Origin: a virus
Direction: 5' to 3' (one strand)
Virus record (IMG/VR): IMGVR_UViG_3300029554_000001
Length of the DNA stretch: 64,000 nucleotides
Positions 1 through 64,000 of the stretch are shown here, piece after piece. The notes under the pieces were generated by a model. It saw nothing but the letters and a program-made list of their open reading frames with translations. It was not told the DNA's origin and ran no database searches. The translations under genes were made by a program, and so were the position numbers. Numbering within the stretch: position 1 is the first letter of the stretch; each line of letters begins with the position of its first letter.

Positions 1-3000
1 GAAGGGGCCAAAGAAAGTACTTATGATGATAAGGGAGAGCTTTTACAATAGGGTATAAAAGATTTCTTGGCTGGCTTATCTGGTGACAAAGAATAGTTGC
101 ACAACGCTGTTTTAGCGCTGGTAGAACAAATAGTTCAAACCGCTGGTGTTGATATTGATGCAAAACAGCAAATGAGCGAGGTTATATCTCAACAATCTAT
201 TAATGTCCCTATAAAATATAAAGGAGAAGAGCGGAATAGTACGTTAGAAAGTGCAATCACTGGAACTTCAAGTGCTAAATATCAAGCTGTTTTAGAAGAA
301 CAAAGAAGTAAGATGGCTGGAGGGTTATCTGAAGGATTCCAACGTATTCAATCTGCATTAGCATTTCAACAAACTGGAACAGCAGGGGATGAAGCTGTCA
401 AGCAAGCAGTTGAGAGAATAAATTGGCTCGCTGATATTGTAAGTGAAATAGGTGGCAATTCTGAGCTAGAAGAAGGACTTCGTAAAATAGCAGAAGGTAA
501 TCCTCGGTTTACTGGAATGGACGCAAACACTATTGCAAATTCTATTTCTAAAATTTATGCTTTTTCCGAGGGGATGGACGCATCTCTTTCTCATAATTTA
601 AACAATTTAAACCAAGCGAGATAGGCACAAGGACTTAAACCTATCAAAGAAGAAAAATACAGAGAAAAATTCTTCAAAGAAAATCCTGAAATAGCTCAAA
701 AATATGAAGAATCTAAAGCTGCAAGAGAACGTTATGATTCAGTCGAATCTGACAAGGTAAGTGACAAATTACAAGCGTTCTTTTCTGTTGTTGGACAAAC
801 AGAAGAAGGGGTTAATAAGTTTATTACAGTTCTTGCTAAAGCTTACGAGAATTTGAACGGAACTATTTCTAAAGTTGTAAAAACAGATGAGGGAGACCGT
901 AGAGCTACTGCTTCTGCTCAAAGATGGGTGGAAGATACTGTAGAATATAGAGTGAGTTCTTCTGGCAATGCCATTAACCCAAACAAAGGAGTGAATGCTC
1001 CCTATTATCAAAGAGAGGGTATCAGAGGTTAGGATGTAAACTGGGAAGAAATTACAAGTAATCCTTCTCCTGCTTTAACTACCAATTTGTAGAACAAAGC
1101 TGGTTTAACTGGTAATATTTATGATGGTAACAGTCCCCAAGAAAATGCTGAGATTGCAAAAAGTATTCTTGAACAGAAAAAGAAAGAGCTTGCAAGAGTA
1201 CAAGCTTTAGTTGCTAATCCTAAGAGTGAAGCAAGTAAAAATAAAAATTTAAAACGTATTCAAGAAATTTAGGCTGAAATAGATTTTCATTATAAAAACT
1301 GGGATGAACTTGTTATGGCTCAAACCCCAGTTGTTAGAAAAGGTAAAAAGAATACAGGAAAAGATGATTTTAATGTTCCTGTTGCAACGCCCTTGAATCC
1401 TGAAGCTGAAAGAATCAAGAATTTAAAAGAAAGTGTAAAACAATCTGGTTTTTCTCAAGGGTCTTCTTTTACTGCTAAAAATTCTGTTAGGCGGACTTTT
1501 GGTGGAACAATTACTGGTATAAAAGGAGAAGGAGCTCGGCAAGTTATTGAAGCTCTTTTAGAAGACGGTAAAACTGTTAAATATACGTTTGATAGTTTAT
1601 TAAAATAGCTTATTACTTACTCAGAACAAGCTGCAACAACAGTTGAGGATGTTTCTGAACAAATTAAAACCAATGTAATTCAAGATTCTCAACAAATAGA
1701 ACAAGCAATTGAATCTACTCCTACTATGGCAAATGAAACGTCTCAAACAGAAAAAGCTTTACAACAAGAAGAGGCGGCTATAACCGATGTTAATACTGCT
1801 TTAGATAAACATGAAACAGAAGTTTTATCTGCGGCAGATGCAGAACAACAAAAGATTTTAGTGTCTCAAGATTTAGTTAAATAGTTAACTAAAGAAGAGG
1901 GCGCTTTAGATAAAGTAAGTGAAAGCGCCAAAGAAGCTGAAATTCAAAAAGGTGTTACATATACATATAAAGATTTGCAATCTTATGATGATGCAACACA
2001 TACTTATACCGATACTAATGGTAATAAGTTAAGAAGTATTACTCAACTTGGTGGAGCTTTAAAGGGCTTTATTCCTTCTGCAACAGCTATTGCTGACGAA
2101 AAAGCTTTTATGGCTGCTATTGCTAACACTCCTAAAGGAGAACAATTAACTGCTGAAAAAATTGGCATGACCGCGCAAGACTTTGCTAAAAAGAAAAATG
2201 CAATTATAAGTAGGGAAAAAGGCAATTTAGAGCATGAGGTTTTTGACCTTTTAAGTAAGACTGGATTTTCTGGAGTTGAAGGTTTTGCTGGAAAAGATGT
2301 TGAGGTAAAATGGAACGGTGCTACAGAGATAGTAGATGCTCAAGAACAATTCGCAAGAGTATTAAAAGAAAAAGCAGACCTTTTATCCAAGCTTGGTATT
2401 GACAATGCTGAACAACTTTTATTACAAGCTGTCGAGAGTTATACTAAAGCAATAAATAACGCTCATATTCAATTAACTCCTTTCTCTGAAACTCCTATGG
2501 CTGCGAGTTTTAGTGGTCCAAAAGGAACTTTTGATTATTCTTTTACACCCGACTAGATTGCAAGGAGTTCTGATGGTTCTCCACAGAATTTTATTCTTGA
2601 TACCAAAACTGGTAAGACTTATGGTACAGAAAGTTTCCAACTTGCAGGACAATTGTACGGTGTTTTAGCTAATGCTCAAAACCCTGAATTCCAAAAATTA
2701 TATCAAGAAAGTGGAATTGACACAGATAAAGATTTTTCACTTTTTATCGCCGATGTTAAAGATGGATTTACTCAATTAATTCAACACATGGCTTTAACTG
2801 AAGAGGAATTTTACGACCTCCTTGTTAGAGCAAATGATATTATAGATGGCAAGGCTGAACCTTTAACTAAAGATGAACAAGCAGCTCTCATGAATAGAGA
2901 GATGACCACAGGTAGAGTTTTTGGTAGGTCAGAATCTCCTGTATCTGAAAAAGCTGCTAATAATAATTTTGTTTCTTACGCTCCTGATGAAAATGGTAGC

Positions 3001-6000
3001 ATTGATAAAAGAGAGCAAGCTATTATTGGTAGTTATTTAACTGAGTATCAGAAATTAATAAATTATCAAACCCAATTAAATAATTTAAAGAAGCAACAAG
3101 AAGAATTAGCCCAAAATGGTGTCGGTTATACTAGTGAAGAATCACAAAAACTTGAACAACAAATATCGACCATGCAATCTACAGTTAATCTTCAAAAGAA
3201 GATTATGGCGGAAAAGAATCTTGATTATAAGGTTTTAAACACACCTCGGGAAGCTGACAAAGTTGCAATAGGGAATGTTCTTTTATCTGACAAGGGTAGC
3301 AAACTTGCTACGCTGCAATGGGCTAAAATAAATGCGCTTAGTAGTAATAAGCAGAGAAAAAATGACACCAGTGTTACTACTCAGCAAAATACAGAAGCAA
3401 CAAAGGATTTAGATTTACTTTTAAGTCAATATAAAGAACTTCTAAGTCTTCAAAATTAGTTGAAAGAGTCTAACATTAAAGCTGAAAGTTTAACAGGGGA
3501 CAAGCAAGCCGCTCAACAAAATGCTTCTGCTAATTTGCAAGAAAGAATTGATAAACTTCGTGAAATTTCTACTCTTACTGGTGAAATAACAGATGAGAAG
3601 AGAATTGAAGAAGAAATTACAAAAGCCACTTATTTAACTGAGAGTGAAAGAGCTAAGAAATTAAATACTCTTAGAACTACAGTAGGAGAAGCAAATCAAA
3701 AGAATTTAGACATTGACACTAAATATGCTCAAGCGGCAAGAAATAATAACCCAACTCTTCAAAATACTTTAACTGGTTATTATAGAAACCTTGAAGAACA
3801 AGGTAGAATTGAAAGAGAAATTGCTAGAGCAGAAAATAAAGGAATGTCTTTAACTGGAAATGCGGCTATTGAAAATAAATCCTTTATTCATTCTCTGCAA
3901 AGTTAGAAAAACAATTTAGCAAACCAATATAAATATGACGAGCAAAAGAAAACTTTAAATGGTATTGAATTAACAGAAGAGCAAATTAACAAATTAGAAC
4001 AAGAAAGAACTCGTATCTTAAACAACAACCAAATTGAGATGGATAGAGTTGGAAATTCTGTTAATCAAACTAAAGGCTTTTTAACTCAACTTAAGGATAA
4101 TTTTAAAGATAGCTTTTCTCAAATTGGAATGGCTATAATGCAAATATTTTCTTTCCAGTAGATATAGAAAGTATTTAATGATTTTATTTCTGCTACTGAA
4201 AGACTTGACTAGAAAATGGTTGACCTTCAAATTGCAAGTGGTTATACCAAGAGTAATATTCACGATATGATGCTTGAGTTTAATGACTTGGCAAAAGAAA
4301 TCGGTAAAACTACTGAAGAAATTGCTGAAGCTGCAAACGATTGGCTTCGTGCTGGTTACGAAGGACAAGAAGCATCTCAATTAACTAATGCTTCTATGCA
4401 ATTAAGTACGCTTGGTATGATTAATAGCGCTGATGCTACGAGTTATCTGATTAGTGTGCTTAAAGGATGGAAGTTAGAAGCAACCGAAATTCAAGGAGTA
4501 GTGGACAAATTAACTGCTGTTGACATGCAGGCCGCTATAAGTGCTGGTGATTTGGCAGAAGCTATGTCTCGTGCTAGTAATTCTGCACAAATGGCTGGTA
4601 CAAGTTTAGATAGATATATTGCGTATCTTACCACTATTACAGATGTAACTCAAAAGAGCGCTGCGTCTGTTGGTGAATCTATGAAAACGGTTTATGCACG
4701 TTATTAGAACATTGCCGCTGGTAAATTTGTAGCTGCTGAGTCTGATATTGAAAGCGAGAATTATAATGCCGATGAATGGGCTAACTTAAATGATGTTGAA
4801 AAAGCTCTTGGTGCGTTGGGTATTAATATTAGAGATTCTGTATCTAGCTTTAGAGACTTTGATGATATTATGGATGAAATTGCTAGCAAGTGGAATACAT
4901 ATACAGACGTTCAAAAATCTGGTATTGCTACTTCTCTGGCTGGTGTGAGACAGCGTGAAAACTTGCTTACCTTGTTTGAAAACTGGGACGCTGTTGAAAA
5001 ATTTGAAGAAATTTCTACTAATGCATATGGCACTGCTATTGAAAAAATGAAGTCTTATACTGATAGTGTTGAAGCTGCCAAGAATAGAGTTACTGTTGCT
5101 CTTGAAAAGTGGGTTTTAGCTCTTAATCAGTCTGATACTTTGATTTGGTTCTATAATGCTGTTGCAGACGTTTCTGATAATCTTGTAGCATGGGCGGGAG
5201 CTATTTTACTAGCAACTGCTGCAATGAACTCTGTTGGTTTTGGAAGTACAATGCAAAATGCATGGTCTAAATTTGTTTCATCTTGTATTAATGTTTCTAT
5301 GAAACTTGATAAAATGAATATTTCAACTCAGGGATATTTTACTCAAGGCGGAAGACAAAGTTTAGGAGAATCTTTAAAAGCAAATTATACTGAATCGTTT
5401 AATGTGGCTCTTAAAGAGAATTACGCAAAAAGCTTAACTAATACTATTAATAGTTTAGATAATTTAACTGATAGTACTAAAAAGATATTGGTTGATGGTT
5501 ATGTTCCAATGCAAAATTCCATGCTTAATTACAATACTAAAATAAAAGAAAATATTGCCAGTATTTTAAAAAACACTGCGCTTACCGACGAGTAGGCGGC
5601 ATTACAGCTACGAGAAAATTTGGCTGACCAAAACAATGCATGGGTAGATGCTATGTTGTCTACTATAGATTAGGAAGAGCTTCGTTTAAGGACTGAACAA
5701 ATCACTCAAGGTCAAAGAAGCTTGACTGATGAAGAAAAGCTTTAGATAGCCACAGAAGAATTGGCAAGAAGACGTAATGATGCGGCAGTCAGAACTGTTG
5801 CAGATGATTTAGAAGGCTCTTCTAGGATAAGTCCTCAAAGAGCGGCTTTAAAAGGTGGCGCAACCATGGTTGGGTCTGGTCTTGGTGCTTTAGCTGGTAT
5901 GGCTATTGGAGAAAATCTTCTTGGTGGTGGTTGGGCAACTTCTTTAGGAACCATGATAGGTATGGGTATTGGTGGAAAAGCTACTTCCACTATGGCTCTT

Positions 6001-9000
6001 GCATTTGCTGACGCTATGGCGGCAGGAGGTTCTATTTTTACTGGTATGAAGGCAGGCGCAATGGCTTTAGGTCCTGTTCTCGGTATTGGAGTTGCGGCTT
6101 TAGCTATTGGGGCTGGTTATGCTTTGTATAAAAAGCACCAACAAAAAATGATAGAAGAAGCTAAAACTGCTTTTACAGATGCAGCAGAAGAATTAACTAA
6201 TGCCAAATCTTTACAAGCTACCGCTTAGAAATATGATGAACTTTCTAAGGGTGTTGATTCTTTGGGAAGAAATGTTTCTCTTACTGATGAAGAATACGAA
6301 AAATTCCTTGATTATAGTAATCAATTAGTAGAAGCATTTCCTGAATTACGTATTCGTACAGATGAAAATGGCAACGCTATTGCTGATATGGGTAATGAAA
6401 TGGAAACCACTTCTGATAAGGTTAAGGGGTTAATAGATTCTTTACAAACATTGGCAGATTAGAGAATGGTTATGGGTTCTGATGGTGAAAAAGTATTACA
6501 AGATACTTTAGATACTGCGGCTCAGGAATATAAAGATGCGCTTTCAGATTTGAATAATGCAAGGGCTGACAGGGCTAATAATTATACCGATGTAATGGCT
6601 TTACAACAACAAAGAGACCAAGCACAAGAAGAATTAGACAAAGCCCGTGAAGATTACAATGATGCCGAAATAAAACAGCTTCAAGATGAATTAATCAATG
6701 CACAAAATAAATTGGCTGGATATCAGCAAAGACAAGCAAACGGAGAAAAGAATTTAGGTAGTGTCATAGTTCTTGCGCAAGATAATGTTGATAGAGCTAA
6801 AAGAGCTTATGAAAATAAAGTTGGACATCAAGATATTAATACCCTTGAAAATCAAGTTGCTGACCTTGACGTTAAGATAAAAGAAGCTCAAGCTGAAAAT
6901 AACGCTGGTGAAGCTGCTGTTGATGCAGCTCAAAATGCTTATGATAGAGCTATTATAAGTGCTAAAGAAACATTAAGTGAATCTGGTAAGGCTTATGCAA
7001 GACTTATTGGGGCTTATGAAGATGTTGATGATGTAACCAGCAACTTGTTTGATAATGCTATTGGTTCTATTGATGCTGTTGATAAAGCTGGAAATGCCTT
7101 GTCTCCTGAAATGTATAAGCAAAAAGTTAGAGACATGATTAATTCTGTCAATGGTCTTGTTTCTGATGAAACTGTAAAAACTTTAATTGAAGCAACAGAT
7201 GAAAAAATAAACACTGATATGACTGTTGCAGATGCTAATAAAGCTAGAACACAATTAAAGAAATATCTTGAAGATACTTTCCCGAATATTGAAGATGATG
7301 AAAATTTGATGAAAATTGTGGTTGGAATTGGATTTGAAGTTGTTGATGGTGAAATTGTTGATAAATAGAACATAGCACAACAATTTAAAGACAAGTATGG
7401 ATTTAGTAAACAACCACGGGGTATTACAGAGGATTATTTTAATTCTCTTACTGTTTCTCAAGGTCAAAAACTGTTTAATTGGATGGGTACAGATGGTTAT
7501 TTCTCTAATGGAGTGAATACAAATCAAAGCATTGTTAATTCTATGTTTTACGCAGATAGAGAAACTCCAACTAAATTAACTGGTGAAAATGGGTTAATTA
7601 ATAAATATCTTGAAGATATGAATGCTATGAATGACCTTGAAGCTAAGATTGATGAAGTTTTTAACGGTGATAAATACGATTTAAAGAACTCTAATCTTAA
7701 CGAACTTTTCGCCGAATTTCCTGAAACTGTTAGGAACAGTTTAAGTCAAGTATAGGAAGCCCTTAATAATGGAGACATTGATAAAAATGGATTAGCTGAT
7801 TAGCTGAGGGCGACTTATGATAATGCTTATTCTACTGTTTTGGACGAAGGTAAAAAGATTGCTGAAACTATGTCTTCACAATATTTTTCTGATTTGGAAT
7901 TACCTGACGGCTATATCAAATCTTGGTCTGAATTAAAAGAAGCTTTTTCTGATGTTTCTAGTATTTTTGACCAACTTGCTGATGCAAGAGAGGAAATGGC
8001 CTCTTCTGGCAGATTAAGTATCGAAACCACTCTTGAACTTCTCTCTACAAATGCTGATTATATTAATGCTTTGGAGATTGAGGGAGAGAATATTGTGCTT
8101 AAAACTGACGCCGAAGAAATAATGAATAAAGTTAGACTTTAGACTATTGCTGTTAGTTTACAAGCACAGATTCAAGAAGATAATTTAAGAGTTGCACAAT
8201 TAAAGAATCAACTTCAAACTTTAATGTTGTCTGGTACTTATATTGAAACTTCTGATGCTTTGGTTGAATCTACCAAGGCTAAAGTTTATGCTTATGATTC
8301 AGAAGGAGAAGCTCTTGCTAATTTAGCTAATCAATATTTAACGGCTGCGAATGCTGCTTCTTTGTTGAATAGAGCCCAAAATGGAGAAACAGTAGATATA
8401 GGCAGTGTAAAAGCTGTTAAAACTATTAAGTACACTCCTACAGATAAGTCGGCTTTGGAAAGTAAGACTATTGATTTATCTGGTAATACTGAAGCTCTGC
8501 AAAAATAGATTGAAGTTACCAAGTCTGAGTTGAAAAGTTTGGTTGGTAGTTTTGACGAAGTTGTTACTACAGATAAAACTGGCAAGGTTACTGGTTATGA
8601 TGTTAAATTTAAGACCCATACTGATAAAGATGGAAATATTCATTATGATGAAGGTAATATTGCTATGCGTGAGCACTTGCTTTATAGTGTTTAGGACATG
8701 CTTGAGTCTGGTAATTTAGCTAAAGCGTTCAAGAAAGGTTATACAAAACCAATAAAGAGTGCTGGCAAAGCTGCGAAAGATACTAAAGATAAAGTTCTTG
8801 ACCTTCTCAAAGCTTATGATTCTTTAATCGACAAAGAATGGGAAGCAATGAAAGTATTTGATGAAAATACTTTAACTCCTACTGGATATACCCAATATTT
8901 TGAAAAGAAGAGAGCAAGTCTTGAAAAATTAGCGGCTTATTATGAAGGTATGATGCAAAATACCAATCTCACAGAAGAAGAGAGATTAGATGCAGAAAAG

Positions 9001-19594: not shown

Positions 19595-19612
19595 AAAATT
19601 TTTGCCAAGTAC

Positions 19613-19641
19613 TTGACAAGATGAAAAAACTATGCTATATT
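19613..19641 (+). promoter_or_regulatory. sigma70/sigmaA-type promoter at the structural-to-replication module boundary
   Basis: TTGACA (19613-19618), 17 nt, TATATT (19636-19641). Confidence 0.65.
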
Positions 19642-19693
19642 TTATTCACAACCAAGGTAGGTTGATTTTTTTGAATAATTAGGAGATAGTAAA

Positions 19694-53168: not shown

Positions 53169-53182
53169 GAAAGGATAATTTG

Positions 53183-53395: not shown

Positions 53396-53415
53396 TTATA
53401 AAAGGAGTATTTAAA

Positions 53416-54144: not shown

Positions 54145-54185
54145 ATTTGACCGATTGGATTAGTAAAAAATAACTGAATAAACCC

Positions 54186-54214
54186 TTGACAAATGTAAAT
54201 CTCTATGGTAATCT
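54186..54214 (+). promoter_or_regulatory. sigma70/sigmaA-type promoter overlapping an 11-bp perfect inverted repeat
   Basis: TTGACA (54186-54191), 17 nt, TAATCT (54209-54214). IR AAATCTCTATG (54197-54207) / CATAGAGATTT (54218-54228). Confidence 0.5.
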
Positions 54215-54252
54215 AATCATAGAGATTTACTTATTAAGAAAGGAAGTGGAAA

Positions 54253-55179
54253 ATGCCCTATAAAAAAAGAAAAGATAATTTGTGGTGTGTTTATAAGCAT
54301 ACAAGCCCTTCTGATGGAGTATATATAGGAATAACAAGTGATTATCCTTTAGCAAGATGGAGAAATGGTCGAGGATATGATTGTTGTGAAGTTATGAATA
54401 AAGCTATAAAAAAATATGGCTGGGAAAATTTTACTCATGAAATATTATTTGATAATTTAACAAAAGAAGAAGCTTGTTAGAAAGAAATAGAATTAATAGC
54501 CTTTTACAAAAATTAGGGACATTGTTATAATTTAGCTGAGCGGGGAACTAATGGATTAGCTTCAGAAGAAACTAAAAAGAAAATGTCTTCAAATAGACAG
54601 CGGAAAAACGCTCATGGTTGGCGGCATATTGTTTCTTCAGAAACTAAACAAACGGTAGCTAAAAAAATAAAAGGTATTAAAAGAAATTCAAAGACTAAAG
54701 AAAAATTAAGTAGCACGCATAGTAAAAAAGTTTATTAGTATAATTTAAACGGAGAATTAATTCAGGAATGGGACAGTGTATATCAAGCATCTAATATATT
54801 AGGATTAGCTCGAAGCCCAATTACACGTTGTAGATTATATTAGCAAAAAATTTATTAGAACTGTTTATGGCTGCTTGATTATATTGATGCTATATTAATA
54901 TAGAAATATTTAAACAATGAAATCATTATTCCTCCGATTAAAAATAAGTCTTTATTACAAAAGAAAGTAAGTTGTTTTTAGGATGAGAAAAAAATTAAAA
55001 CTTTTGATTCTATAAAAGAAGCTTCAAAATGGTCAAAAATTACTGAACAGCAAATTCGGTATGCTTGTAAAAACAATAAAATTGCAGGAGAATATTATTG
55101 GAAATATGAAGAAGATTATTTTGGTGACAATTATTTTCTTTATTGGGCCAATAATCAGGATAAAATAAAATAGGAGTAA
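54253..55179 (+). CDS. free-standing GIY-YIG homing endonuclease (8 in-frame TAG)
   Basis: RBS AAGGAAG then ATG. WCVYKHTSPSDGVYIGITSD...RW...G...KAIKKYGWENF..EIL is a GIY-YIG module. The frame continues through 8 TAG (hand count) to TAA 55177-55179. The C-terminal part has NUMOD/IENR-like DNA-binding repeats (YNLNGELIQEWDSVYQASNILGL..., KTFDSIKEASKWSKITEQQIRYACKN). Confidence 0.75.
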
Positions 55180-55180
55180 T

Positions 55181-56440
55181 ATGGAATATTGTAAATATCT
55201 TATTTTAGTAGACCCTAATAATAATGGGGTTGATTCAAATAAATTCTACAAAATGGCTGGAAATGGTGATGATACGTTTACTGTAGAATTTGGTCGTGTT
55301 GGTGCCACTCCTCAGACTAAAACTTATCCTATGTCTAAATGGAATTCTACTCTTGCCTCTAAGTTGAAGAAGGGATATGTTGACCGTTCTGATTTGATGC
55401 AGGAAGTTATTGCTGATTCCAAAATTGAGGATAAGTCTAATGGAGTAGATGAATTTAGTTTGGTTCAAAACCTATCTGTCCGAGAGATTGTTAAACGTCT
55501 TTGGGATTATGCTAATAAGACTATTCAATCTGCTTATTCTGTTCGTGCTGAAGCTGTTACTCAGGCTATGATTGATGCTGCTCAGGAAAAGATTGACTAT
55601 ATTGCAGCGAATTACAAAAACTGGTCTGTTGAGGAATTTAACAAGAATTTAAATGAGTTGTTCATTATTGTCCCTCGTAAGATGAAGCGTGTTTCTGACT
55701 GTCTTGTTTCTGATTCTTCTGAATACGACAAAAAGCTTTCTGAGGAACAAAGCTTGCTTGATACTATGGCTGGTCAGGTTTATAAGCCAAAGGCGAGAAT
55801 TGTTGATGCTGGTTCTGAAATTAAGGCTTCTGAAAGTATTTTACAGAAGATGGGTATTACCATGGAAGAAGCTACTCAGGAAGATATTGCTAAAATTAAA
55901 AAGGCAATGGGGGATTCTGCTGGAAAGTTTTACAAGGCTTGGCGTGTTACTAATCTTGAGACTGAAGAAAGATATCAGAAATTTACTTCAGAAAATAATA
56001 TTGGTAATGTAAAATTATTCTGCCATGGTAGCCGAAATCAGAATTGGTTTAACATTCTTAAGATGGGTTTAAAGATTCGCCCCGCAGGAGTTATTACAAC
56101 AGGTTTGATGTTTGGAAAGGGCGCCTATTTCTCGAATAGTGAGAAGTATCATGGAGGGGTAGCCAAATCTATTGGTTATACTTCTTTAGGTGGATATTGG
56201 ACTCGTGATTATCAGAATTGCGGCTTTATTGCTTTCTTTGATGTGGCTATTGGAGATAGTGTTGATGCCTATTCTTTTGATTCTAAGTATTATTCTTATA
56301 ATCTTGAGAGGCTAAAAAAGGACAATCCTAAAGCTTGGAGTTTGTGGGCTCATGGCAATACTTCTATGCTTCGCAACGATGAAATTATCGTTTACGATGA
56401 TAGACAAATGACTATTCGATATTTAGTGGAGATTAGATAA
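55181..56440 (+). CDS. WGR-domain poly(ADP-ribose)-polymerase-like ADP-ribosyltransferase
   Basis: N-terminal WGR-like segment (LILVDPNNNGVDSNKFYKM...FTVEFGRVGATPQTK). C-terminal PARP catalytic H-Y-E type motifs (LFCHGSRNQNWFNILKMGL, MFGKGAYFSN). No TAG. Confidence 0.75.
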   Translation: MEYCKYLILVDPNNNGVDSNKFYKMAGNGDDTFTVEFGRVGATPQTKTYPMSKWNSTLASKLKKGYVDRSDLMQEVIADSKIEDKSNGVDEFSLVQNLSVREIVKRLWDYANKTIQSAYSVRAEAVTQAMIDAAQEKIDYIAANYKNWSVEEFNKNLNELFIIVPRKMKRVSDCLVSDSSEYDKKLSEEQSLLDTMAGQVYKPKARIVDAGSEIKASESILQKMGITMEEATQEDIAKIKKAMGDSAGKFYKAWRVTNLETEERYQKFTSENNIGNVKLFCHGSRNQNWFNILKMGLKIRPAGVITTGLMFGKGAYFSNSEKYHGGVAKSIGYTSLGGYWTRDYQNCGFIAFFDVAIGDSVDAYSFDSKYYSYNLERLKKDNPKAWSLWAHGNTSMLRNDEIIVYDDRQMTIRYLVEIR

Positions 56441-57193
56441 ATGAAAGAGCCTGTAAAAATTGGAGACGTTTTCGGTCGTTTGAAGGTTTTGTACAAGTGT
56501 GATTACTAGTATCATGGACCTAATCGGAAACGAGCTAATTTGTGGCATGTGCAATGTTAGTGCGAAAATAAAACAGAATTTGATGTTTTAACAAATAGTT
56601 TGACTTCTGGTAACACAAGGTCTTGTGGTTGTTTACAAAAAGAGGCTACTATTGAGAGTGGAAAGAAAAGAAGAAAATTAAACAAATATGATTTAAGTGG
56701 AGAATATGGGATAGGATATACTTCTAAAAATGAACCTTTTTATTTTGATTTAGAAGATTATGATAAAATAAAAGAATATGTTTGGGTATATAATAAAGAA
56801 AAATATCCTGTTACAACTGTTTATAAAAATAATCAGCCTCATTATTTACATTTAAAAAGATTTGTTTTAGATATTACTGACTCTAAAATAGATGTAGACC
56901 ATAAAAACCATGTTCCTTATGATTGCAGAAAAGAAAACTTAAGACCTTTAGAACATTATCAAAATATTGGTCATTGTAAAATTTATACTAATAATACTTC
57001 TGGTGTTAAAGGCGTAAGTTACGATAAAATGCGAAATAAATGGAAAGCTTCTTTAGTTGTAAATAAAGAAACTAAATTAAACAAACGTTTTGATACTTTT
57101 GAAGAAGCTGTAAAAGCACGTCAAGACGCAGAAGAAAAATATCAACAAGGATTTAGATACAATTCTGATGAAGATTTGTATAATAGAGGATAA
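56441..57193 (+). CDS. HNH-type homing endonuclease with AP2 DNA-binding domain
   Basis: ATG abuts the PARP TAA. 2 TAG (codons 22 and 38) join it to ORF-track 56600..57193. HNH region VDHKNHVPYDCRKENLRPLEHYQN. AP2-like SGVKGVSYDKMRNKWKASLVVNKETKLNKRFDTFEEAVKARQDAEEKY. Confidence 0.75.
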
Positions 57194-57198
57194 ATAAA

Positions 57199-57687
57199 AT
57201 GATTGGTGAAATGCAGACTGTTTCTAGCGTAACTTTTGGTATTCCTTCTGATTTTCCTTCTCTTGTAGACTCTGTTGTGGGTTCTCTTAAAAAGGGATAT
57301 AGAGATTATTGTTTTACAAATAAGCAACTAAAAGAAATTATTGAAAAATGCCACGAGGCAAATGTAAGTTTTGCTTATCGTAAGCAGTTAGATGAAGATT
57401 ACAAGATTGAATATATTGAACTTATTCCTTGTACTTTTTATTTCGCAGAAACAGTCGAGGAAAATAAAGTCGAAAACATTCAGGTAGCAATGGAAAATCT
57501 TCCTGTGGCATTAATTTTCTGTCCTAAAAATAATAAGACTGATATTACTATTGATGCTGATTATCAGGAAAAGAATGAAAAAAGGGCAAAGAGTTATAAG
57601 AAGCTTGCATATTTCGATGATGATGGTTGTCCAGTATATATTGAAGACCTTACGAGAATGAGAAAGGAAAAAGAAAATGGAGTATAA
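57199..57687 (+). CDS. hypothetical protein
   Basis: 162-aa ORF, no TAG. Overlaps the next start. Confidence 0.5.
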   Translation: MIGEMQTVSSVTFGIPSDFPSLVDSVVGSLKKGYRDYCFTNKQLKEIIEKCHEANVSFAYRKQLDEDYKIEYIELIPCTFYFAETVEENKVENIQVAMENLPVALIFCPKNNKTDITIDADYQEKNEKRAKSYKKLAYFDDDGCPVYIEDLTRMRKEKENGV

Positions 57688-58510
57688 AACATTAGGCGAT
57701 AGAATGAAAGGAGCTTACGAGAATAAATATCGCAATTATCTTCCTGAGAATCTTCCTGTTATTGTTAGGCTTGATGGGCAGCACTTTCATTCCTTCTGTC
57801 GTGGTATGAAGAAACCTTTTGACCCAATTTTTGTTAAAACTATGCAACAAACTATGCTTAAGCTCTGTGAAATTATTCCTAATGTTAAGTTTGGTTATGT
57901 TGAATCTGATGAAATTTCTCTTGTCATGATTCAAAGTGAAAGAAATTCTCAGCCTTGGTTTGATAATAATATTCAAAAGATTGTTAGTACATCTGCTGCG
58001 CTTTGCACTCTTTGGTTTAATAATTATTTTGCTGAGAATACTATTATTGATACAACTTTGGATATCTTTAATATGGACCAAGATTCTTATGATTGGCGAA
58101 TGGTTCGTAAGGGAAAAGAAATGCCTACTTTTGATAGTAGAGTATTTGTTGTCCCTGCCTTTGAAGTGCATAATTATTTTGTTTGGAGACAGCAGGATTG
58201 TACTCGAAATTCTATTCAGGCAGTTGCTCAATCTTTGTATCCTCAAAAAGAACTTCATGGTATTAACACTACTAAATTGCAGGATAAGATGTTTACTGAA
58301 AAGGGTGTAAATTGGAACGATTATACGACAGTAGAGAAACGTGGTACTTGTGCTTATCGTGTTCCTACTACTGTTATTGGCAAAGATGGTCAGGAGGCTA
58401 TTCGTTATAAATGGGTTCTTGATTATGAAATGCCGATTTTAACAAGTGAAGAGGGTAAAAACTTTATTAGTCAAAAGGTATTTACCAATGAGTTTATTCA
58501 AAAATCCTGA
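57677..58510 (+). CDS. Thg1-like protein (tRNA-His guanylyltransferase family, 3'-5' nucleotidyl transferase)
   Basis: The N-terminus LGDRMKGYE...LPVIVRLDGQHFHSFCRGMKKPFD is the hallmark Thg1/TLP opening. Size ~277 aa. TGA stop. Confidence 0.75.
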   Translation: MEYKTLGDRMKGAYENKYRNYLPENLPVIVRLDGQHFHSFCRGMKKPFDPIFVKTMQQTMLKLCEIIPNVKFGYVESDEISLVMIQSERNSQPWFDNNIQKIVSTSAALCTLWFNNYFAENTIIDTTLDIFNMDQDSYDWRMVRKGKEMPTFDSRVFVVPAFEVHNYFVWRQQDCTRNSIQAVAQSLYPQKELHGINTTKLQDKMFTEKGVNWNDYTTVEKRGTCAYRVPTTVIGKDGQEAIRYKWVLDYEMPILTSEEGKNFISQKVFTNEFIQKS

Positions 58511-58904
58511 ACGTGCTAAATAGCTTGTAGATTTTAGCGGACTAAATGTTGAGGGAACTAGTATATATCCTTCTGATTTAGATTTTATCTTAGAACTTTG
58601 GGATGTCGGATATATGTTCGGAGAGTTTAAATATAAAGGAAAAGAAGTCGAAAGAGGGCAAGATTTATATTTAACTCGTATTGTAAGAGCTACAGAAAAA
58701 GCAGATAAATTTACTATTAGCTTTGTTGCAGACCATTATATATCTGACACTCACGAAATGATTCCTGCCGATAAATGTATTGTAAGAAAATATATGTTTA
58801 CTGGTATATATACATGGCTGTATCCAAAAGAGAAAACTACAGTCAAAGAGTTGCAGGATTGGTTTGTCCAAAAATGTAGATTTAAAAAACAATATAAAAA
58901 CTAA
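58488..58904 (+). CDS. hypothetical protein (one in-frame TAG)
   Basis: ATG 58488 overlaps the Thg1-like 3' end. TAG at codon 12 joins it to ORF-track 58614..58904. Confidence 0.5.
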
Positions 58905-58914
58905 TATTAATCTA

Positions 58915-58943
58915 TTGACAAAAAATTAAAATTGTGCTATATT
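58915..58943 (+). promoter_or_regulatory. sigma70/sigmaA-type promoter
   Basis: TTGACA (58915-58920), 17 nt, TATATT (58938-58943). Confidence 0.6.
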
Positions 58944-58973
58944 ATTTTTATAAAAAGAAAGGAGATAAATCCA

Positions 58974-59501
58974 ATGCAGTTTCAAGTTATGAGTCGTAGA
59001 GATTGTGTTAAGTATAGTTATGGTTCTCATGAAGAATCTTCTATTGTAATTAGCATTAACGATTCTGCCGATATTGGAGTGCGTCAACTTCCTAACAAGT
59101 TTAATAATATTAAAGCGCAATTATCTCTCTTTTTTGATGATATTCAGCCATATAGAGGTATGAAATACTGGAAGAAAGATGAAGGCGTAATTATAGAAAA
59201 TTATACAAACGCAGATGGGTTTGTATATGAGTCTCGCATGTATCAGCTTATGACTGAAAAAGATGCTAAGAAAATTATTGGTTTTGTCAATAAATGGTAT
59301 AATAAAGTAGATAAGATTATTGTTCATTGTAATGCTGGTATTAGTCGTTCTTCTGGAGTTTGTGCTGGTATTATGAAATGTTTTACTGGGGATGATAGCC
59401 AGATTTATGATAATCCGTATTATCATCCAAATACTTTGTGTTATAATCTTATTTTAAATGAATATTACAAGGAAGGAGGAAAAAGCAATGGAGAGGATTA
59501 A
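58974..59501 (+). CDS. Cys-based (CX5R) protein/dual-specificity phosphatase-like protein
   Basis: RBS AAAGGAG then ATG 58974. Active-site signature VHCNAGISRSSG. Confidence 0.65.
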   Translation: MQFQVMSRRDCVKYSYGSHEESSIVISINDSADIGVRQLPNKFNNIKAQLSLFFDDIQPYRGMKYWKKDEGVIIENYTNADGFVYESRMYQLMTEKDAKKIIGFVNKWYNKVDKIIVHCNAGISRSSGVCAGIMKCFTGDDSQIYDNPYYHPNTLCYNLILNEYYKEGGKSNGED

Positions 59502-59811
59502 TGCAAAAGTGGGGACGCTTGATACGGGTCGAGGAGTATGCGGTATTTGTTCAGGATGCGAAAACGAATTGATTTGCAAATACACAGACGATGTGTTCGA
59601 AGCAGAGAAGGCTTTTAATGAGCTCAAGAAAAGTATTAAAGATTATCCTGAGTGTCTTTCTGTAAAGCTTACTTGTAAATATAAGAAGTATGTTACTACC
59701 AAGGCTGACATGTGGGGGTCAGATTGGGCTGGTTCTACTTATACTCGTACAAGTGCGAATTCTAATTTAGATATTACTCCTACATTGAAAAAGTCAGAAT
59801 TTTTTTATTAA
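59488..59811 (+). CDS. hypothetical Cys-containing protein
   Basis: RBS GGAAGGAGG then ATG 59488. 107 aa. Confidence 0.5.
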   Translation: MERINAKVGTLDTGRGVCGICSGCENELICKYTDDVFEAEKAFNELKKSIKDYPECLSVKLTCKYKKYVTTKADMWGSDWAGSTYTRTSANSNLDITPTLKKSEFFY

Positions 59812-59815
59812 ACCA

Positions 59816-59844
59816 TTGACAAATTAATGTTTGTGTGGTAATAT
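59816..59844 (+). promoter_or_regulatory. sigma70/sigmaA-type promoter driving a region without a convincing CDS
   Basis: TTGACA (59816-59821), 17 nt, TAATAT (59839-59844). Confidence 0.55.
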
Positions 59845-60063
59845 AAATATACAGTTGGTTAATCGGCAGTTACGAGAAGACAAGATAACTCGTAAAGAAA
59901 TGTGGTGCAACAGCTTTCTTGTCAAAGTGCCTAATATGTTGCCAAAAGACACCTTGCATCCAACTATAAAATCAAAAGGTAGCGAGTGTATCATTTTAAC
60001 GGTTTTGGGTACACATCTAAATAAAACTTTGAGAAAAAATAAAAAGAAAGTTTTATTAAAGCC

Positions 60064-60092
60064 TTGACAATTTGATGATTGTATGTTATGAT
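60064..60092 (+). promoter_or_regulatory. sigma70/sigmaA-type promoter upstream of tRNA-Leu
   Basis: TTGACA (60064-60069), 17 nt, TATGAT (60087-60092). tRNA-Leu starts 40 nt downstream. Confidence 0.6.
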
Positions 60093-60131
60093 TATCATGT
60101 TGAAAGGGAAAAGACAAACAATAAAAAATAT

Positions 60132-60217
60132 GCGGGTATGGTGGAATTGGTAGACACACTTGATTTAAGTTCAAATGTCTTGCAGACGTGAGGGTTCGAG
60201 TCCCTCTACCCGTACCA
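60132..60217 (+). tRNA. tRNA-Leu (anticodon UAA), type II with long variable arm, CCA encoded
   Basis: Hand-folded cloverleaf. Acceptor GCGGGTA/TACCCGT. D arm GTGGAATTGGTAGACAC. Anticodon loop TT-TAA-GT. Variable stem GTCT/AGAC. T arm GAGGG-TTCGAGT-CCCTC. A-CCA end. Confidence 0.85.
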
Positions 60218-60307
60218 TTCGCTTTTGCGGAACAAACTTGAGGCGAGGGAAGTTAGAAAACAGTAGTACCTGTACTATGAATTGATTTATAACTCGCCCA
60301 CATATTA

Positions 60308-60383
60308 CGGGGATTAGCGCAGTTGATAGCGCGCGTGGTTTGGGACCATGAGGCCGTGGGTTTGAGTCCCACATCTCCGACCA
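60308..60383 (+). tRNA. tRNA-Pro (anticodon UGG), CCA encoded
   Basis: Acceptor CGGGGAT/ATCTCCG. D arm GCGC-AGTTGATA-GCGC. Anticodon arm CGTGG-TT-TGG-GA-CCATG. T arm GTGGG-TTTGAGT-CCCAC. A-CCA end. Confidence 0.85.
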
Positions 60384-60421
60384 TATTTTTTAAATTTGTT
60401 ACAAAAAGTGAGGAATTAATT

Positions 60422-60733
60422 ATGCAGAAGAGTTGGAATAAGTTTGTTGCTGGTCTTCTTGTTGTTGTGATTTTTGTTGCAGTTTTGGCATTGTCTGGTT
60501 GTAACAATAGCAAGAATAGTATCGGGGCTGATGTAGATAGCGTTCCTGTTGGTTTTACTGATACTGGTTATATGGTAAAGAATGAACAAAATCGTGTTTA
60601 TCATATTGTTTCTGATATGAATGGCTGGCTTTATTATTGTTCTGATGTTGAAGGCAATCTTACTCCTATTCTAAATGCCTTTGGTACTCCTACTAAGGAT
60701 ACTACTCCTTTTGAGGAAATTAATAATGGTTGA
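60422..60733 (+). CDS. predicted lipoprotein
   Basis: RBS AGTGAGGA then ATG 60422. Signal peptide with lipobox: MQKSWNKFVAGLLVVVIFVAVLALSGC. Confidence 0.65.
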   Translation: MQKSWNKFVAGLLVVVIFVAVLALSGCNNSKNSIGADVDSVPVGFTDTGYMVKNEQNRVYHIVSDMNGWLYYCSDVEGNLTPILNAFGTPTKDTTPFEEINNG

Positions 60734-61088
60734 AAATTATTCTCCCGATGAAAAGTTCCTTACTCAAGAATTTACTCTAAAGAGAGATGAGTTGGGAAGC
60801 TGGCTTACAGATGCAATGTGGGAAGGTCTTAAAGATTGTTTTAGGACTCCCATTTGCGAAGAAATGACTTGTGAGAAAGATATTGGCTATGAAAGAGTCG
60901 TTGGGTTTGTAAGAACTCTTTATGTTGACCCTGAAAATAATTTTGTAACATTTGAGGGGCTTTTTTGGCCTACGTATTCTTCTAAAACTAAAGAAGAGTG
61001 GAATAATATTAATCTTTCTGGTGTTTCTTTTTATGTTGTAGGAGAAAAGAATCCTACAAAGATTCCTGTGTCTTGTTTTACAGTGTGA
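60726..61088 (+). CDS. hypothetical protein
   Basis: ATG 60726 overlaps the upstream TGA. 120 aa. TGA stop. Confidence 0.5.
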   Translation: MVENYSPDEKFLTQEFTLKRDELGSWLTDAMWEGLKDCFRTPICEEMTCEKDIGYERVVGFVRTLYVDPENNFVTFEGLFWPTYSSKTKEEWNNINLSGVSFYVVGEKNPTKIPVSCFTV

Positions 61089-61096
61089 GGTAAATT

Positions 61097-61531
61097 ATGT
61101 CTAAGAAGAGTTTTAAATATCGTAATTAGGTTGTTTGTCCGAAATGTCATCAAAAGTATTCAGCTAATTCTAATTATGAATGTCCTTATTGTCATACAAA
61201 ATTCTACGACTTGAGTTTTGTTGATACAAAAACAGAAAATGGTTCGCCTGTTTATGTAAGATATAAATGTAATGGGTATACTGGCTTTGCAGAAAATCCT
61301 AAAGAAGAGTATGATGTATTTATTACAGTAGCAACATTAGGGATTAATGTCGAAAACAATTTTAGTCATAATTATGATTATGTTTATAATTTTCGAAATG
61401 AATTTTATGCAAGACATTTACAAACCTCTTCTTTTAATGTAAAGGCAGAAATGGAAGCATTAGCTACTTCAGGAGAAAACGGTGAGCCTATTCTCTTTGT
61501 AGTTGAAGCTGTCCCTAAGAAGAAAAAATAA
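61097..61531 (+). CDS. zinc-ribbon protein (one in-frame TAG)
   Basis: ATG 61097. TAG at codon 11. CPKC...CPYC ribbon upstream of ORF-track 61211..61531. Confidence 0.55.
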
Positions 61532-61536
61532 GGTAT

Positions 61537-61612
61537 GCGTCTATAGTCTAACTGGATAAAACAAATCTCTCCTAAAGATTAGTTCTGAGTTCGAGTCTCG
61601 GTAGGCGTGCCA
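61537..61612 (+). tRNA. tRNA-Arg (anticodon CCU), CCA encoded
   Basis: Acceptor GCGTCTA/TAGGCGT (two G.U pairs). D arm GTCT-AACTGGATA-AAAC (one mismatch). Anticodon arm AATCT-CT-CCT-AA-AGATT. T arm CTGAG-TTCGAGT-CTCGG. G-CCA end. Confidence 0.75.
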
Positions 61613-61625
61613 GAAAGGAAAAGAT

Positions 61626-61865
61626 ATGCCCAAGTGGTTGATTATTGGAATTGTTTTAATTCTTAATCATATTCTGTGGATTTTCTTTGCTCATGTAATG
61701 AAGTGCATCGCAGAAAAAAATGAAAATTATTGGGATTTTAAGGCTGACCCATTTGAATCTTTGGGCGCATTTTTCTTTCCCTTATTTGTATTTATTTTTT
61801 CTGCTGCTAAGTTTGTCAGTAGAAAAGCCATTTATTCTGGCAAATTTGATGATAATGAAAAGTAA
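61626..61865 (+). CDS. small two-TM membrane protein
   Basis: RBS AAAGGAAAAG then ATG. Hydrophobic segments WLIIGIVLILNHILWIFFA and LGAFFFPLFVFIFSAA. Confidence 0.55.
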   Translation: MPKWLIIGIVLILNHILWIFFAHVMKCIAEKNENYWDFKADPFESLGAFFFPLFVFIFSAAKFVSRKAIYSGKFDDNEK

Positions 61866-61947
61866 AGGAAATAAAAAAATTCTTTTATTAAATACTTGAC
61901 AGATTTAAATATCTGTGTTACCCTATAAGAGAAGTGAGGAACATAAG

Positions 61948-62235
61948 TTGGAACTTTCTAAGAATCCTTCAATTAGATTCCTAACAGTTGTAAATGGTAA
62001 GGCTTGGTGTGATAATGATTCCGAAACTAAAAAGTTTAAGTTGACTAATACACCTCCTGAGCCTTTAAGAAAAGCTGTAGATGTTATTGCAGAAGATTTG
62101 GGAATTGATTTTCCTATGAGTTCTGCTAATTATGTTGCTAAAGTATACAAAGATTTTCTTGTAAAACATTTTGATTCATACCATCAGTATTATAAAAAGT
62201 TACAGGAAAATTTGCAAGAAACAGATAAAGAATAA
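61948..62235 (+). CDS. hypothetical protein (TTG start inferred)
   Basis: RBS AGTGAGGAA then TTG 61948, in the frame of ORF-track 61915..62235. A TTGACA box at 61895-61900 has only a poor -10 (TACCCT). Confidence 0.45.
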   Translation: MELSKNPSIRFLTVVNGKAWCDNDSETKKFKLTNTPPEPLRKAVDVIAEDLGIDFPMSSANYVAKVYKDFLVKHFDSYHQYYKKLQENLQETDKE

Positions 62236-62246
62236 AGGAGAAGGTT

Positions 62247-62720
62247 ATGTCAGTGTCTATTATTCAGGGAGATGTCCTTAAGACTTCGGCAAAGTATATT
62301 TGTCATCAGGTTAATACCTTTGGTGTAATGGGCGCTGGTGTTGCTCTTCAAATTAAGAAGAATTATCCTCATGTTTATTTGGAGTATAATAAGTTTTGTA
62401 GTTATCATACTCCTGAAGAGCTCTATGGTAAAGTTCTTCGAATTGAGGAAAATAAAGATAGAGTTTTCTTGAACATGTTTTCTCAGATTGGTATTGGTGG
62501 ACCAAATGTAAACACCAATTATGAATATTTTCATGAATGTCTTCTTAAGATTCGTGAAATGATTCCTATTGGAGAAGAGATTGCTATGCCTTATATGATT
62601 GGGTGTGGTCTTGCTGGTGGAGATTGGTCTATTATTAGCGCAGATATTTCTGATACTTTAGGACTAAGCCATATTGTACGTTTGTATGATTTTAATGGCG
62701 TGACTTCTGTGAAAAAGTAA
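62247..62720 (+). CDS. macro-domain protein (ADP-ribose binding/hydrolase)
   Basis: RBS AAAGGAGAAGG then ATG. IIQGDVL...YICHQVNTFGVMGAGVALQIKK...IAMPYMIGCGLAGGDW is a macro-domain signature. Confidence 0.75.
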   Translation: MSVSIIQGDVLKTSAKYICHQVNTFGVMGAGVALQIKKNYPHVYLEYNKFCSYHTPEELYGKVLRIEENKDRVFLNMFSQIGIGGPNVNTNYEYFHECLLKIREMIPIGEEIAMPYMIGCGLAGGDWSIISADISDTLGLSHIVRLYDFNGVTSVKK

Positions 62721-62722
62721 TT

Positions 62723-63196
62723 ATGAAAGTTTGGCTTAAATATATAGATTATTGTTATGAAGATTATTCTCTTGATGCTGTAATGACAGAAGAGGCTATG
62801 CTTAAAGATAAACAGAGTTATTATCTTGAAGCGACTGTTAAACTTTCTGAGGATATTAAATATCTTACAGATAAAGTAGAAATTGCTAAAAAAGAAAGAC
62901 AACCTTATATTGAACAGCATAAAGAATATTGTCAGAGAAAGAATGACTTAATTAAATCTTTAGATTCATTAGCAACTCTTTCTGATGACCAACAAAAACG
63001 TATTTATATTTTACTTAAAGATGTAAAAGCAAAGTTGCGCAAATATACAAAAGAGATTGAAAGAAAAAGTTTTTATATCAAAGATTTAGAACGAAAAATT
63101 GAAAGACTCAAAAACCAAACTGAGGAAGAAATTCTTGATTCTTATTTAAGAGAAAATCGTATTGCTTATGAGAGTTGGGAAGTTCTTGAACATTAA
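62723..63196 (+). CDS. hypothetical coiled-coil protein
   Basis: 157-aa ORF rich in K/E heptads. TAA stop. Confidence 0.5.
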   Translation: MKVWLKYIDYCYEDYSLDAVMTEEAMLKDKQSYYLEATVKLSEDIKYLTDKVEIAKKERQPYIEQHKEYCQRKNDLIKSLDSLATLSDDQQKRIYILLKDVKAKLRKYTKEIERKSFYIKDLERKIERLKNQTEEEILDSYLRENRIAYESWEVLEH

Positions 63197-63353
63197 ATAT
63201 TAATTAAGATAGATACTCCATTGGTTAAGTCTACGTTTGTCTGGTTAAGCTCATTACTTTACTGGTATCTTAGTAGGAAACCTATCAGGCTAGCATGAGG
63301 TCTCTACGGAGCGTGGGGTTTGATACCATTCATGCGTGAGTGGTATCATATAT

Positions 63354-63429
63354 GCAGGATTAGTGTTAGCGGTTAGCACGACGGTCTTCCAAACCGTAAG
63401 GGCGAGTTCGAATCTCGTATCTTGCTCCA
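63354..63429 (+). tRNA. tRNA-Gly (anticodon UCC), CCA encoded
   Basis: Acceptor GCAGGAT/ATCTTGC. D arm GTGT-TAGCGGTTA-GCAC. Anticodon arm ACGGT-CT-TCC-AA-ACCGT. T arm GCGAG-TTCGAAT-CTCGT. U-CCA end. Confidence 0.8.
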
Positions 63430-63451
63430 TTAAATTTTATTTAATAAACAC

Positions 63452-63480
63452 TTGACAAAGCGTTTGTTAGATGTTATAAT
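63452..63480 (+). promoter_or_regulatory. sigma70/sigmaA-type promoter (perfect consensus)
   Basis: TTGACA (63452-63457), 17 nt, TATAAT (63475-63480). Confidence 0.7.
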
Positions 63481-63507
63481 TCAAAATGTAAAAAGGAAGT
63501 ACGAAAA

Positions 63508-63954
63508 ATGACTGATATTACCCCTATCGTAGTTGCTGTAATTGGTTTGTGCTCTTTGATTTTTACAATCGTTCTTATTCCTTATCTTAAGAAGAAGGGT
63601 AAGTTGGACGATGTTAATCATGCTCTTACTCAAGCAGAACTTATTCATAAGTATGCTTTGATTGCAGTTAAGGCTGTTGAGCAGATGTTCCCTCGGGAAA
63701 TTGAAAAGCGTTTACAGGAAGCAACAAAGTATTTTAATCGGCAGATGGAAGCTCTTGGTATTACTCTTGATGCAGATGAAGTTCGTAAGGCTATTGAAGC
63801 CGCTGTTTATGAGGTGAATCGTGAACTTCACGATGAAAAGTTGAAGGAGAGCCAGCTTCAAAATACCAATCCTGTTCCTTCGAATGACAAGATTGACAAC
63901 ACTGGTAATGTTATCCCTGATGAAGATACTGTAACTGAAGAAGCAGTAGGCTAA
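63508..63954 (+). CDS. N-terminally anchored membrane protein, LL-H-type holin-like
   Basis: RBS AAAAGGAAG then ATG. A single N-terminal TM (ITPIVVAVIGLCSLIFTIVLIPYL) followed by an amphipathic region (...ALIAVKAVEQMF...RKAIEAAVYEVN), resembling LL-H family holins. Judged by eye. Confidence 0.5.
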   Translation: MTDITPIVVAVIGLCSLIFTIVLIPYLKKKGKLDDVNHALTQAELIHKYALIAVKAVEQMFPREIEKRLQEATKYFNRQMEALGITLDADEVRKAIEAAVYEVNRELHDEKLKESQLQNTNPVPSNDKIDNTGNVIPDEDTVTEEAVG

Positions 63955-64000
63955 GATAATTTTCCTTTCTTATCTTAATAAATGTGTTGTTGAGACGCAA

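Follow-up and report, generated by a model that had tools for sequence, protein, structure and literature searches.

Does the codon TAG still end proteins in a large tailed phage of the human gut, or is it read there as an amino acid? The question is raised by the virus record IMGVR_UViG_3300029554_000001, of which we analysed one stretch of 64,000 nucleotides (nt), called the window below; it is a 64-kb piece of a phage genome of about 215 kb. A first-pass annotation had proposed that TAG is a sense codon throughout this window and stands for glutamine (Gln, Q). Our analysis favours a joint reading, to which we assign a probability of roughly 93%: TAG would be read as Gln (translation table 15), TAA and TGA would be the sole terminators, a phage-encoded tRNA with the anticodon CUA, tRNA(CUA), would decode TAG, and the codon would be used unevenly among genes. 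As read from the sequence, TAG occurs in frame, is conserved, is matched by Gln in homologues and never serves as a terminator, and a suppressor tRNA gene lies on the same contig. The phenomenon is already described in gut phages; it matters mainly since standard gene calling fragments the genes.

Results

Stop codon usage in the window

With TAG read as sense and coding sequences (CDS) of at least 50 amino acids (aa) kept, 61 CDS cover 94% of the window, which has a GC content of 32.5% and carries all its long open reading frames (ORFs) on the + strand. AGGAGG-type ribosome-binding sites stand upstream of most of these CDS; together with the low GC content they suggest a Bacillota-like host, which would itself presumably use the standard code. 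The longest open frame grows from 871 to 3345 codons once TAG counts as sense. The called CDS contain 86 in-frame TAGs (87 after the TTG start of the DnaB gene at 22712 is included) and not one in-frame TAA or TGA in about 20,000 codons. Termination is by TAA in 48 CDS, by TGA in 13 and by TAG in none, and adjacent genes overlap in five cases by ATGA and in three by one base of the TAATG type. TAA and TGA make up 8.8% of the off-frame codons, and open frames of such length are therefore not due to chance: the probability of finding neither codon is about 1e-151 for the 3794 codons of the tape-measure gene and about 1e-53 for the 1339 codons of the gene at 12951-16970.

A test that does not depend on gene calls considered single stop codons with at least 60 open codons on each side. 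On the + strand 23 of 24 such codons are TAG, and the sole TAA (20405) lies in a non-coding frame; the same count on the - strand gives 11 TAA, 2 TGA and no TAG. Pfam domains span in-frame TAGs (NRDD, residues 90-631; RNase_T, residues 10-166), the sequence 3' of late TAGs aligns with homologues, and no gene requires TAG as terminator.

These counts and the homology bear out the central claim of the first-pass annotation, that TAG behaves as a sense codon, and likewise its statements that the interruptions between same-frame ORF fragments are TAG, that CDS end in TAA or TGA only, with ATGA and TAATG coupled overlaps, and that the codon occurs in the SSB, DnaB, RecJ, Pol III alpha, RecD, DnaQ and NrdD genes, each of which has at least one. 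Its figure of 20 TAGs in 1339 codons for the gene at 12951-16970 is exact; the roughly 31 further TAGs that it gave beyond this gene and the tape-measure gene came to 38 when counted. Its phrase "throughout the window" needs qualifying, as TAG is sense wherever it is in frame, yet only 22 of the 61 CDS (36%) contain it, the other 39 do not, and its use is significantly uneven. The tape-measure frame, said to stay open for 11.4 kb with about 3794 codons and 29 TAGs, is in its raw form open over 1-10038 (3345 codons, 27 TAGs) and stops at a TAA at 10036-10038; once 10002-11394 is removed and 1-10001 is joined to 11395-12778, which lies in another frame, the numbers hold exactly, with 3794 codons plus a stop and 29 TAGs.

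The residue at TAG sites

The anaerobic ribonucleotide reductase NrdD has four in-frame TAGs (Table 1). The residues opposite these sites in the structure sequence of NrdD from Thermotoga maritima (4COI) are Q, A, Q and Q. In a homologue set of 150 diverse sequences that represent 50%-identity clusters, all 123 residues aligned to column 513 are Q, and no other column of the protein conserves Gln as strongly; Q fills 99 of 123 at column 226 and 64 of about 110 at column 36. Against a mean Gln fraction of 3.3% per column, these three are among the nine most Gln-rich of the 642 columns. Q is accordingly the preferred residue at three of the four NrdD sites in the homologue alignment that the first-pass annotation had suggested as a check. 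The DnaQ alignment, suggested along with it, could not be read for a residue preference: compared with a solved structure the DnaQ-like protein was uninformative, its TAG sites falling in variable positions.

In three related loci (L001-L003), whose NrdD is 84% identical, the four TAG sites are CAG, CAG, CAG and CAA. Eighteen replication-module genes of these loci (5347 codons) contain no TAG, either in frame or as a terminator. This lineage may be a sister group that avoids TAG or is less recoded, and could then help to date the reassignment. As to existing records of the window's own NrdD, IMG's code-11 calls give it as fragments of 322 and 327 aa, in line with the earlier warning that such calls would shatter genes, and the protein database has the NrdD of this phage at full length, Q standing at its TAG sites. 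Some pipelines can thus cope with the code, and others fragment the genes.

A codon-level comparison of the window with 17 related loci (IMG/VR, ENA) yielded 160 alignment columns with TAG in some genome, 150 of them variable. In the variable columns the alternative residue is Gln in 92, glutamate (Glu) in 24 and threonine in 18. Seen from the other side, 10.3% of the window's Gln columns have TAG in some relative, and at most 1.0% of the columns of any other residue do. Exchange of TAG with CAA/CAG is about ten times commoner than with any other residue, and it involves CAA, at two mutations from TAG, no less often than CAG, which speaks for a synonymous exchange over one due to mutational proximity only. 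Together with the NrdD columns this is independent homology evidence for the earlier assignment of TAG to Gln. Most TAGs of the window are kept as TAG in independent assemblies, up to 12 of them (IMG/VR, ENA, Logan), and sequencing error is therefore excluded. In the gene at 12951-16970, where TAG makes up 40% of the Gln-type codons, TAGs are kept in up to 12 of 12 related loci, and elsewhere the codon is mostly CAA or CAG.

A suppressor tRNA beyond the window

No suppressor tRNA was found inside the 64-kb window, which has four tRNA genes only (Table 1). Positions 53508-64000 are 100% identical to the related locus L004, part of a 215,558-bp human-gut contig, and L004 carries at 19584-19654 a tRNA with the anticodon CUA (36.8 bits with the Rfam tRNA model, gathering score 29). 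It is the last gene of the tRNA array, 9.1 kb beyond the window, at an equivalent window coordinate of about 73091-73161. Two further genomes have this 71-nt gene in the same place, after tRNA-Arg(UCU), and the tail gene of one of them is no more than 61% identical. Aligned in the Rfam register, the tRNA has an acceptor end with U1-U72 unpaired, G2-C71 and G73. Charging by Gln would agree with a weak first pair, G73 and U35 under the identity rules of tRNA-Gln; it would presumably be done by an enzyme of the host. The idea that this tRNA is a simple anticodon mutant of the phage's tRNA-Gln(UUG) was rejected, the two being about 63% identical, as other tRNAs are.

Uneven use of TAG

TAG is a sense codon wherever it is in frame, yet two thirds of the genes avoid it. 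Its frequency per 1000 codons is 8.4 in the tail module, 2.35 in the block of replication and nucleotide-metabolism genes, and 0.74 in the small-ORF block (46-54 kb), and use differs among modules (chi-square p = 9e-4). The 40 TAG-free genes (39 after the correction of the DnaB start, which this figure precedes) have 274 CAA/CAG codons, with a probability of 4e-15 under uniform use. The highest TAG density of the window is found in the free-standing NUMOD1-domain gene at 54253-55179, where TAG makes up 47% of the Gln-type codons (enrichment p = 3e-4), which suggests that expression of this gene depends on the suppressor; its assignment to the GIY-YIG class was read by eye from the sequence and has no profile match. 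The tail gene at 12951-16970 is strongly enriched in TAG as well.

Such unevenness fits the published partial recoding that depends on gene class, and it may act as a timing device. The tRNA(CUA), last in the phage tRNA array, would read TAG as Gln; as in the published model, genes free of TAG could be translated by the unmodified host machinery, and those that bear it, mostly late, would wait until the suppressor has accumulated.

Discussion

Weighing the joint reading

Several observations weigh against reading TAG as Gln with a phage tRNA as decoder. About ten TAGs occur no later than codon 30 of their gene and may sit outside the true CDS if starts were miscalled. Codon 107 of NrdD lies in a variable column in which Q is rare among distant homologues, and in a relative of 50% identity the TAGs of the DnaQ and RecD genes are matched by D, P, E and H, so that these individual sites are uninformative. 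The tRNA(CUA) lies outside the window, its T stem in L004 is imperfect and CCA is not encoded; tRNA-Gln(UUG) is, at about 63% identity, as distant from it as other tRNAs are, and the Gln identity of the suppressor therefore comes from the codon alignments only. The window proteins scanned include no release factor and no aminoacyl-tRNA synthetase, and a scan of IMG/VR for the release-factor motif GAGGQHVN gave no match on the relatives' contigs, which is a weak negative. Finally, replication genes have TAG as well, so a split into early standard and late recoded genes is not clean. According to published surveys a suppressor tRNA is detected in only about 40% of TAG-to-Gln recoded phage genomes, and a phage-encoded release factor 2 or other code-change enzyme is an accessory of only some recoded clades.

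Among the alternatives, the one that survives best, improbable as we judge it, holds that TAG is a leaky stop with partial readthrough and that full-length products are minor. Release factor 1 of the host would indeed compete at every TAG, a phage release factor 2 or anti-RF1 function did not turn up (motif scan, relatives' IMG/VR contigs), and uneven use is what one would expect if each TAG had a cost. However, the tape-measure gene would then need 29 readthroughs and the tail gene at 12951-16970 would need 20, and even 90% readthrough per site would yield only about 5% and about 12% of full-length product. The frequencies of the bases that follow TAG are those found after codons in general, so the 87 sites have no readthrough nucleotide context, and the complete lack of TAG among the terminators of 61 genes points to a full loss of its meaning as a stop.

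Slightly less probable still is a sense codon for some other residue (pyrrolysine, glutamate, lysine, tyrosine or leucine). ARAGORN labels the tRNA(CUA) 'tRNA-Pyl', the suppressor does not resemble the phage tRNA-Gln, and Glu, with its 24 columns, comes second among the alternatives at TAG columns. The label is, however, a mere naming convention tied to the anticodon, and no genes for the synthesis or charging of pyrrolysine (pylS/pylBCD) are among the window proteins scanned. Gln as the alternative in 92 of 150 variable columns, an exchange about ten times that of Glu or lysine, and the invariant Gln of NrdD column 513 speak for Gln over any of these residues.

That TAG is still a stop, and the interrupted frames are pseudogenes, assembly errors or the decaying genes of a defective phage, agrees with the standard code and with the fragmented public code-11 calls and could nevertheless hardly be upheld, as decay would have added TAA and TGA too, the same TAGs recur across independent assemblies and stand on invariant Gln columns of an essential enzyme, the tape measure, NrdD, RecJ and DnaB (all essential) would be inactivated together, and the phage is abundant, with one NrdD variant present on 293 contigs.

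Intervening sequences and other genes

The features discussed here are collected in Table 1.

Table 1. Annotated features of the 64-kb window, with TAG read as a sense codon.
Feature	Coordinates	Strand	In-frame TAG	Remarks
Tape measure, exon 1 (cut by window start)	1-10001	+	27	PHROG tail length tape measure families, phrog_4211 E 1e-44
Intervening sequence, 1393 nt	10002-11394	+		Missing from L010, L014, L017, L020
GIY-YIG-type homing endonuclease gene	10114-11193	+	1	PHROG homing endonuclease families, phrog_7168 E 1e-20
Tape measure, exon 2	11395-12778	+	2	TAA end
Large gene 3' of tape measure, presumed tail or baseplate protein	12951-16970	+	20	1339 codons
Tail-region gene	16988-18007	+	2	
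Small gene at tail-region end	19262-19594	+	1	TAG kept in 9/10 related loci
SSB-like gene	19915-20862	+	1	TAG kept in 10/10 relatives; C-terminal DDDDDIPF
Gene upstream of DnaB	22060-22710	+	1	TAG kept in 10/10 related loci; weak match phrog_4680 (family of unknown function)
DnaB-like helicase	22712-24526	+	1	TAG at 22775; TTG start, GGGAGG ribosome-binding site
RecJ-like exonuclease	25735-27774	+	3	TAGs near N-terminus, kept in 8/8 relatives; Pfam DHH, RecJ_OB
DNA polymerase III alpha, 5' part	27884-29509	+	1	PHP domain and start of polymerase domain
Putative 96-codon ORF in Pol III alpha intervening sequence	29539-29829	+	2	From ORF list
Group I intron core between Pol III alpha halves	29927-30179	+		Rfam Intron_gpI 46.8 bits, E 1.4e-10
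DNA polymerase III alpha, 3' part	30183-32798	+	0	Pfam DNA_pol3_alpha resumes at 122/260, then finger, HHH_6
RecD2-like helicase	32788-35253	+	3	TAGs in C-terminal tail; Pfam domains
Small gene	38703-39146	+	1	TAG is second codon; AAGGAG ribosome-binding site before ATG; no Pfam match
DnaQ-like 3'-5' exonuclease	39149-39691	+	3	0 CAA/CAG; Pfam RNase_T (residues 10-166) spans two TAGs
NrdD, anaerobic ribonucleotide reductase	39937-41865	+	4	TAG at codons 36, 107, 226, 513; Pfam NRDD residues 90-631
Small gene	46447-46716	+	1	TAG at codon 15, start-codon dependent
Gene	46934-47593	+	1	TAG at codon 10, start-dependent; called start overlaps upstream gene by 49 nt
NUMOD1-domain free-standing gene, homing-endonuclease-type	54253-55179	+	8	308 codons; Pfam NUMOD1
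Possible HNH endonuclease gene	56441-57193	+	2	Weak HNH_3, 19.3 bits vs Pfam cut-off 24.8
Gene	58488-58904	+	1	TAG at codon 12, start-codon dependent
tRNA array start	60132-63429	+		Leu-UAA 60132-60217, Pro-UGG 60308-60383, Arg-CCU 61537-61612, Gly-UCC 63354-63429
Gene within tRNA array	61097-61531	+	1	TAG at codon 11, start-codon dependent

The sequence that interrupts the tape-measure gene is probably a group I intron. Its boundaries were taken from the alignment to the four relatives that lack it; the last base of the 5' exon is T and the last base of the insertion is G. In other relatives both ends of the insertion align with the window and the middle, where the endonuclease gene is located, does not; this gene is present in only two relatives in which its TAG site could be compared. 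An Rfam search of the insertion gave no group I intron match at E<=1; a ribozyme core split by the endonuclease ORF is the probable reason.

A second intervening sequence, between the two parts of the Pol III alpha gene, spans 29510-30182, and its Rfam match is just below the Intron_gpI gathering score of 50. Positions 30152-30215 hold a 60-nt stretch with a match of about 90% identity in Twort-like Staphylococcus phages, inside or beside their genes for the terminase large subunit. In the relative L001 the Pol III alpha gene is split elsewhere, and a gene with a faint LAGLIDADG match lies between the parts.

As for the remaining genes, the SSB-like gene has no Pfam match and owes its function assignment to the C-terminal motif, and a PHROGs search with the gene at 12951-16970 gave no function and no family match. 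Of the three TAGs of the RecD2-like protein, the first two (codons 782 and 786) are covered by the alignment with L001-L003 and correspond there to GAG and CAT. Genes related to ADP-ribosylation comprise a NADAR gene (45588-46022), a weak Macro-domain match (53416-54144) and a WGR/PARP-like gene (55181-56440), of which the PARP and WGR matches stem from Pfam annotation precomputed for identical genes in L004.

Relation to known recoded gut phages

Amber-to-Gln recoding had been described by the first-pass annotation as known from gut phages, and the literature agrees. Borges et al. (bioRxiv 10.1101/2021.08.26.457843) reported TAG-to-Gln gut phages with suppressor tRNAs. In these phages only part of the genes are recoded, structural and lysis genes above all; replication genes vary, and the intron endonuclease of an Agate phage is preferentially recoded. 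The phage described here resembles them in its human-gut origin, in TAG = Gln, in the tRNA(CUA) and in the minority of genes recoded, with structural genes the heaviest, replication genes variable and a homing-endonuclease gene preferentially recoded. It differs in that a code-change module (release factor or synthetase) was not found among the window proteins scanned; and whereas their model emphasises recoded lysis genes, the holin gene of the window (63508-63954) has no TAG. Their 'Sapphire' clade (10.1101/2021.08.26.457843), with a TAG-recoded representative, a mean genome of about 201 +/- 22 kb by our reading of their list and in-frame stops in about 26% of the genes, is closest by description only; the corresponding values here are contigs of 207-221 kb for complete or near-complete relatives and TAG in 36% of the window genes. 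The window contains no terminase gene, the marker on which the phylogeny of that clade is built.

A megablast search of window positions 30000-54000 against GenBank phages found no relative, the sole match being the 60-nt intron-like sequence of Twort-like Staphylococcus phages. The crAss-like phages are a different lineage, with genomes of about 100 kb. For these, Peters et al. (2022, PMC9523058) report validation of TAG as Gln by metaproteomics; reassignment and human-gut habitat are the same as here, where sequence comparison is the basis of the reading. In the human-gut phage phAss-1, proposed as 'Phassvirus', with a genome of about 136 kb, TAG occurs in 28% of the ORFs, including the tape measure and DNA-processing genes, and its group encodes many tRNAs, tRNA-Sup(CTA) among them, and lacks a dedicated aminoacyl-tRNA synthetase (PMC10607447). 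The present phage shares with phAss-1 the gut habitat, the TAGs in tape-measure and DNA-processing genes and the many tRNAs including a suppressor, and differs in genome size (PMC10607447).

Probable split suppressor genes and a possible timing of the code switch

In at least two relatives, L005 (19824-20117) and L034 (20019-20312), 219 nt interrupt the anticodon of the tRNA(CUA) gene, which lies about 10 kb past the end of the window; the insert gives a weak Rfam group I intron match (35.2 bits, E 3e-7). Deleting these 219 nt leaves a 75-nt tRNA identical to the intron-less allele of the sister genome L026. An intron-split suppressor tRNA gene in these relatives is therefore, in our judgement, very probable. 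Default ARAGORN misses the split genes, and surveys may thus undercount suppressors.

The relatives have two unrelated types of suppressor tRNA, about 55-66% identical: one of 71 nt without encoded CCA (L004, 19584-19654) and one of 75-77 nt with CCA (L026, 17723-17797; also L027, L029 and L032). As a comparison of L004 with L005 shows, both types occupy one slot, between tRNA-Arg(UCU) and a gene whose product begins MCDNCK. Unpaired U1-U72, G2-C71 and G73 are common to both, provided that the Rfam alignment places the ends of the 71-nt type.

The window also encodes a Thg1-like tRNA-His guanylyltransferase/3'-5' polymerase (57677-58510, PHROG E 5e-77), a kinase-like P-loop protein (35778-36743) and an RNA ligase of the T4 Rnl1 type (36779-38137). 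With more than 17 tRNA genes, these three proteins look like a toolkit for tRNA repair and maturation. It is conceivable, though rather unlikely, that maturation of the suppressor tRNA, by self-splicing and/or 5'-end editing, times the code switch beyond transcription alone.

Conclusions

The window and the abundant gut phage lineage to which it belongs need annotation with TAG = Gln. Under code 11 the tape measure falls into about 30 pieces, and 22 of the 61 genes are truncated or split. The finding would extend the known amber-recoded phages by a further lineage of large gut phages and leaves the current understanding of phage recoding unchanged. What it contributes lies in the particulars: suppression would here be needed by replication genes as well as by tail genes, recoding is among the heaviest in resident homing-endonuclease genes, and sister strains carry different suppressor tRNAs, some very probably with an intron-split gene.

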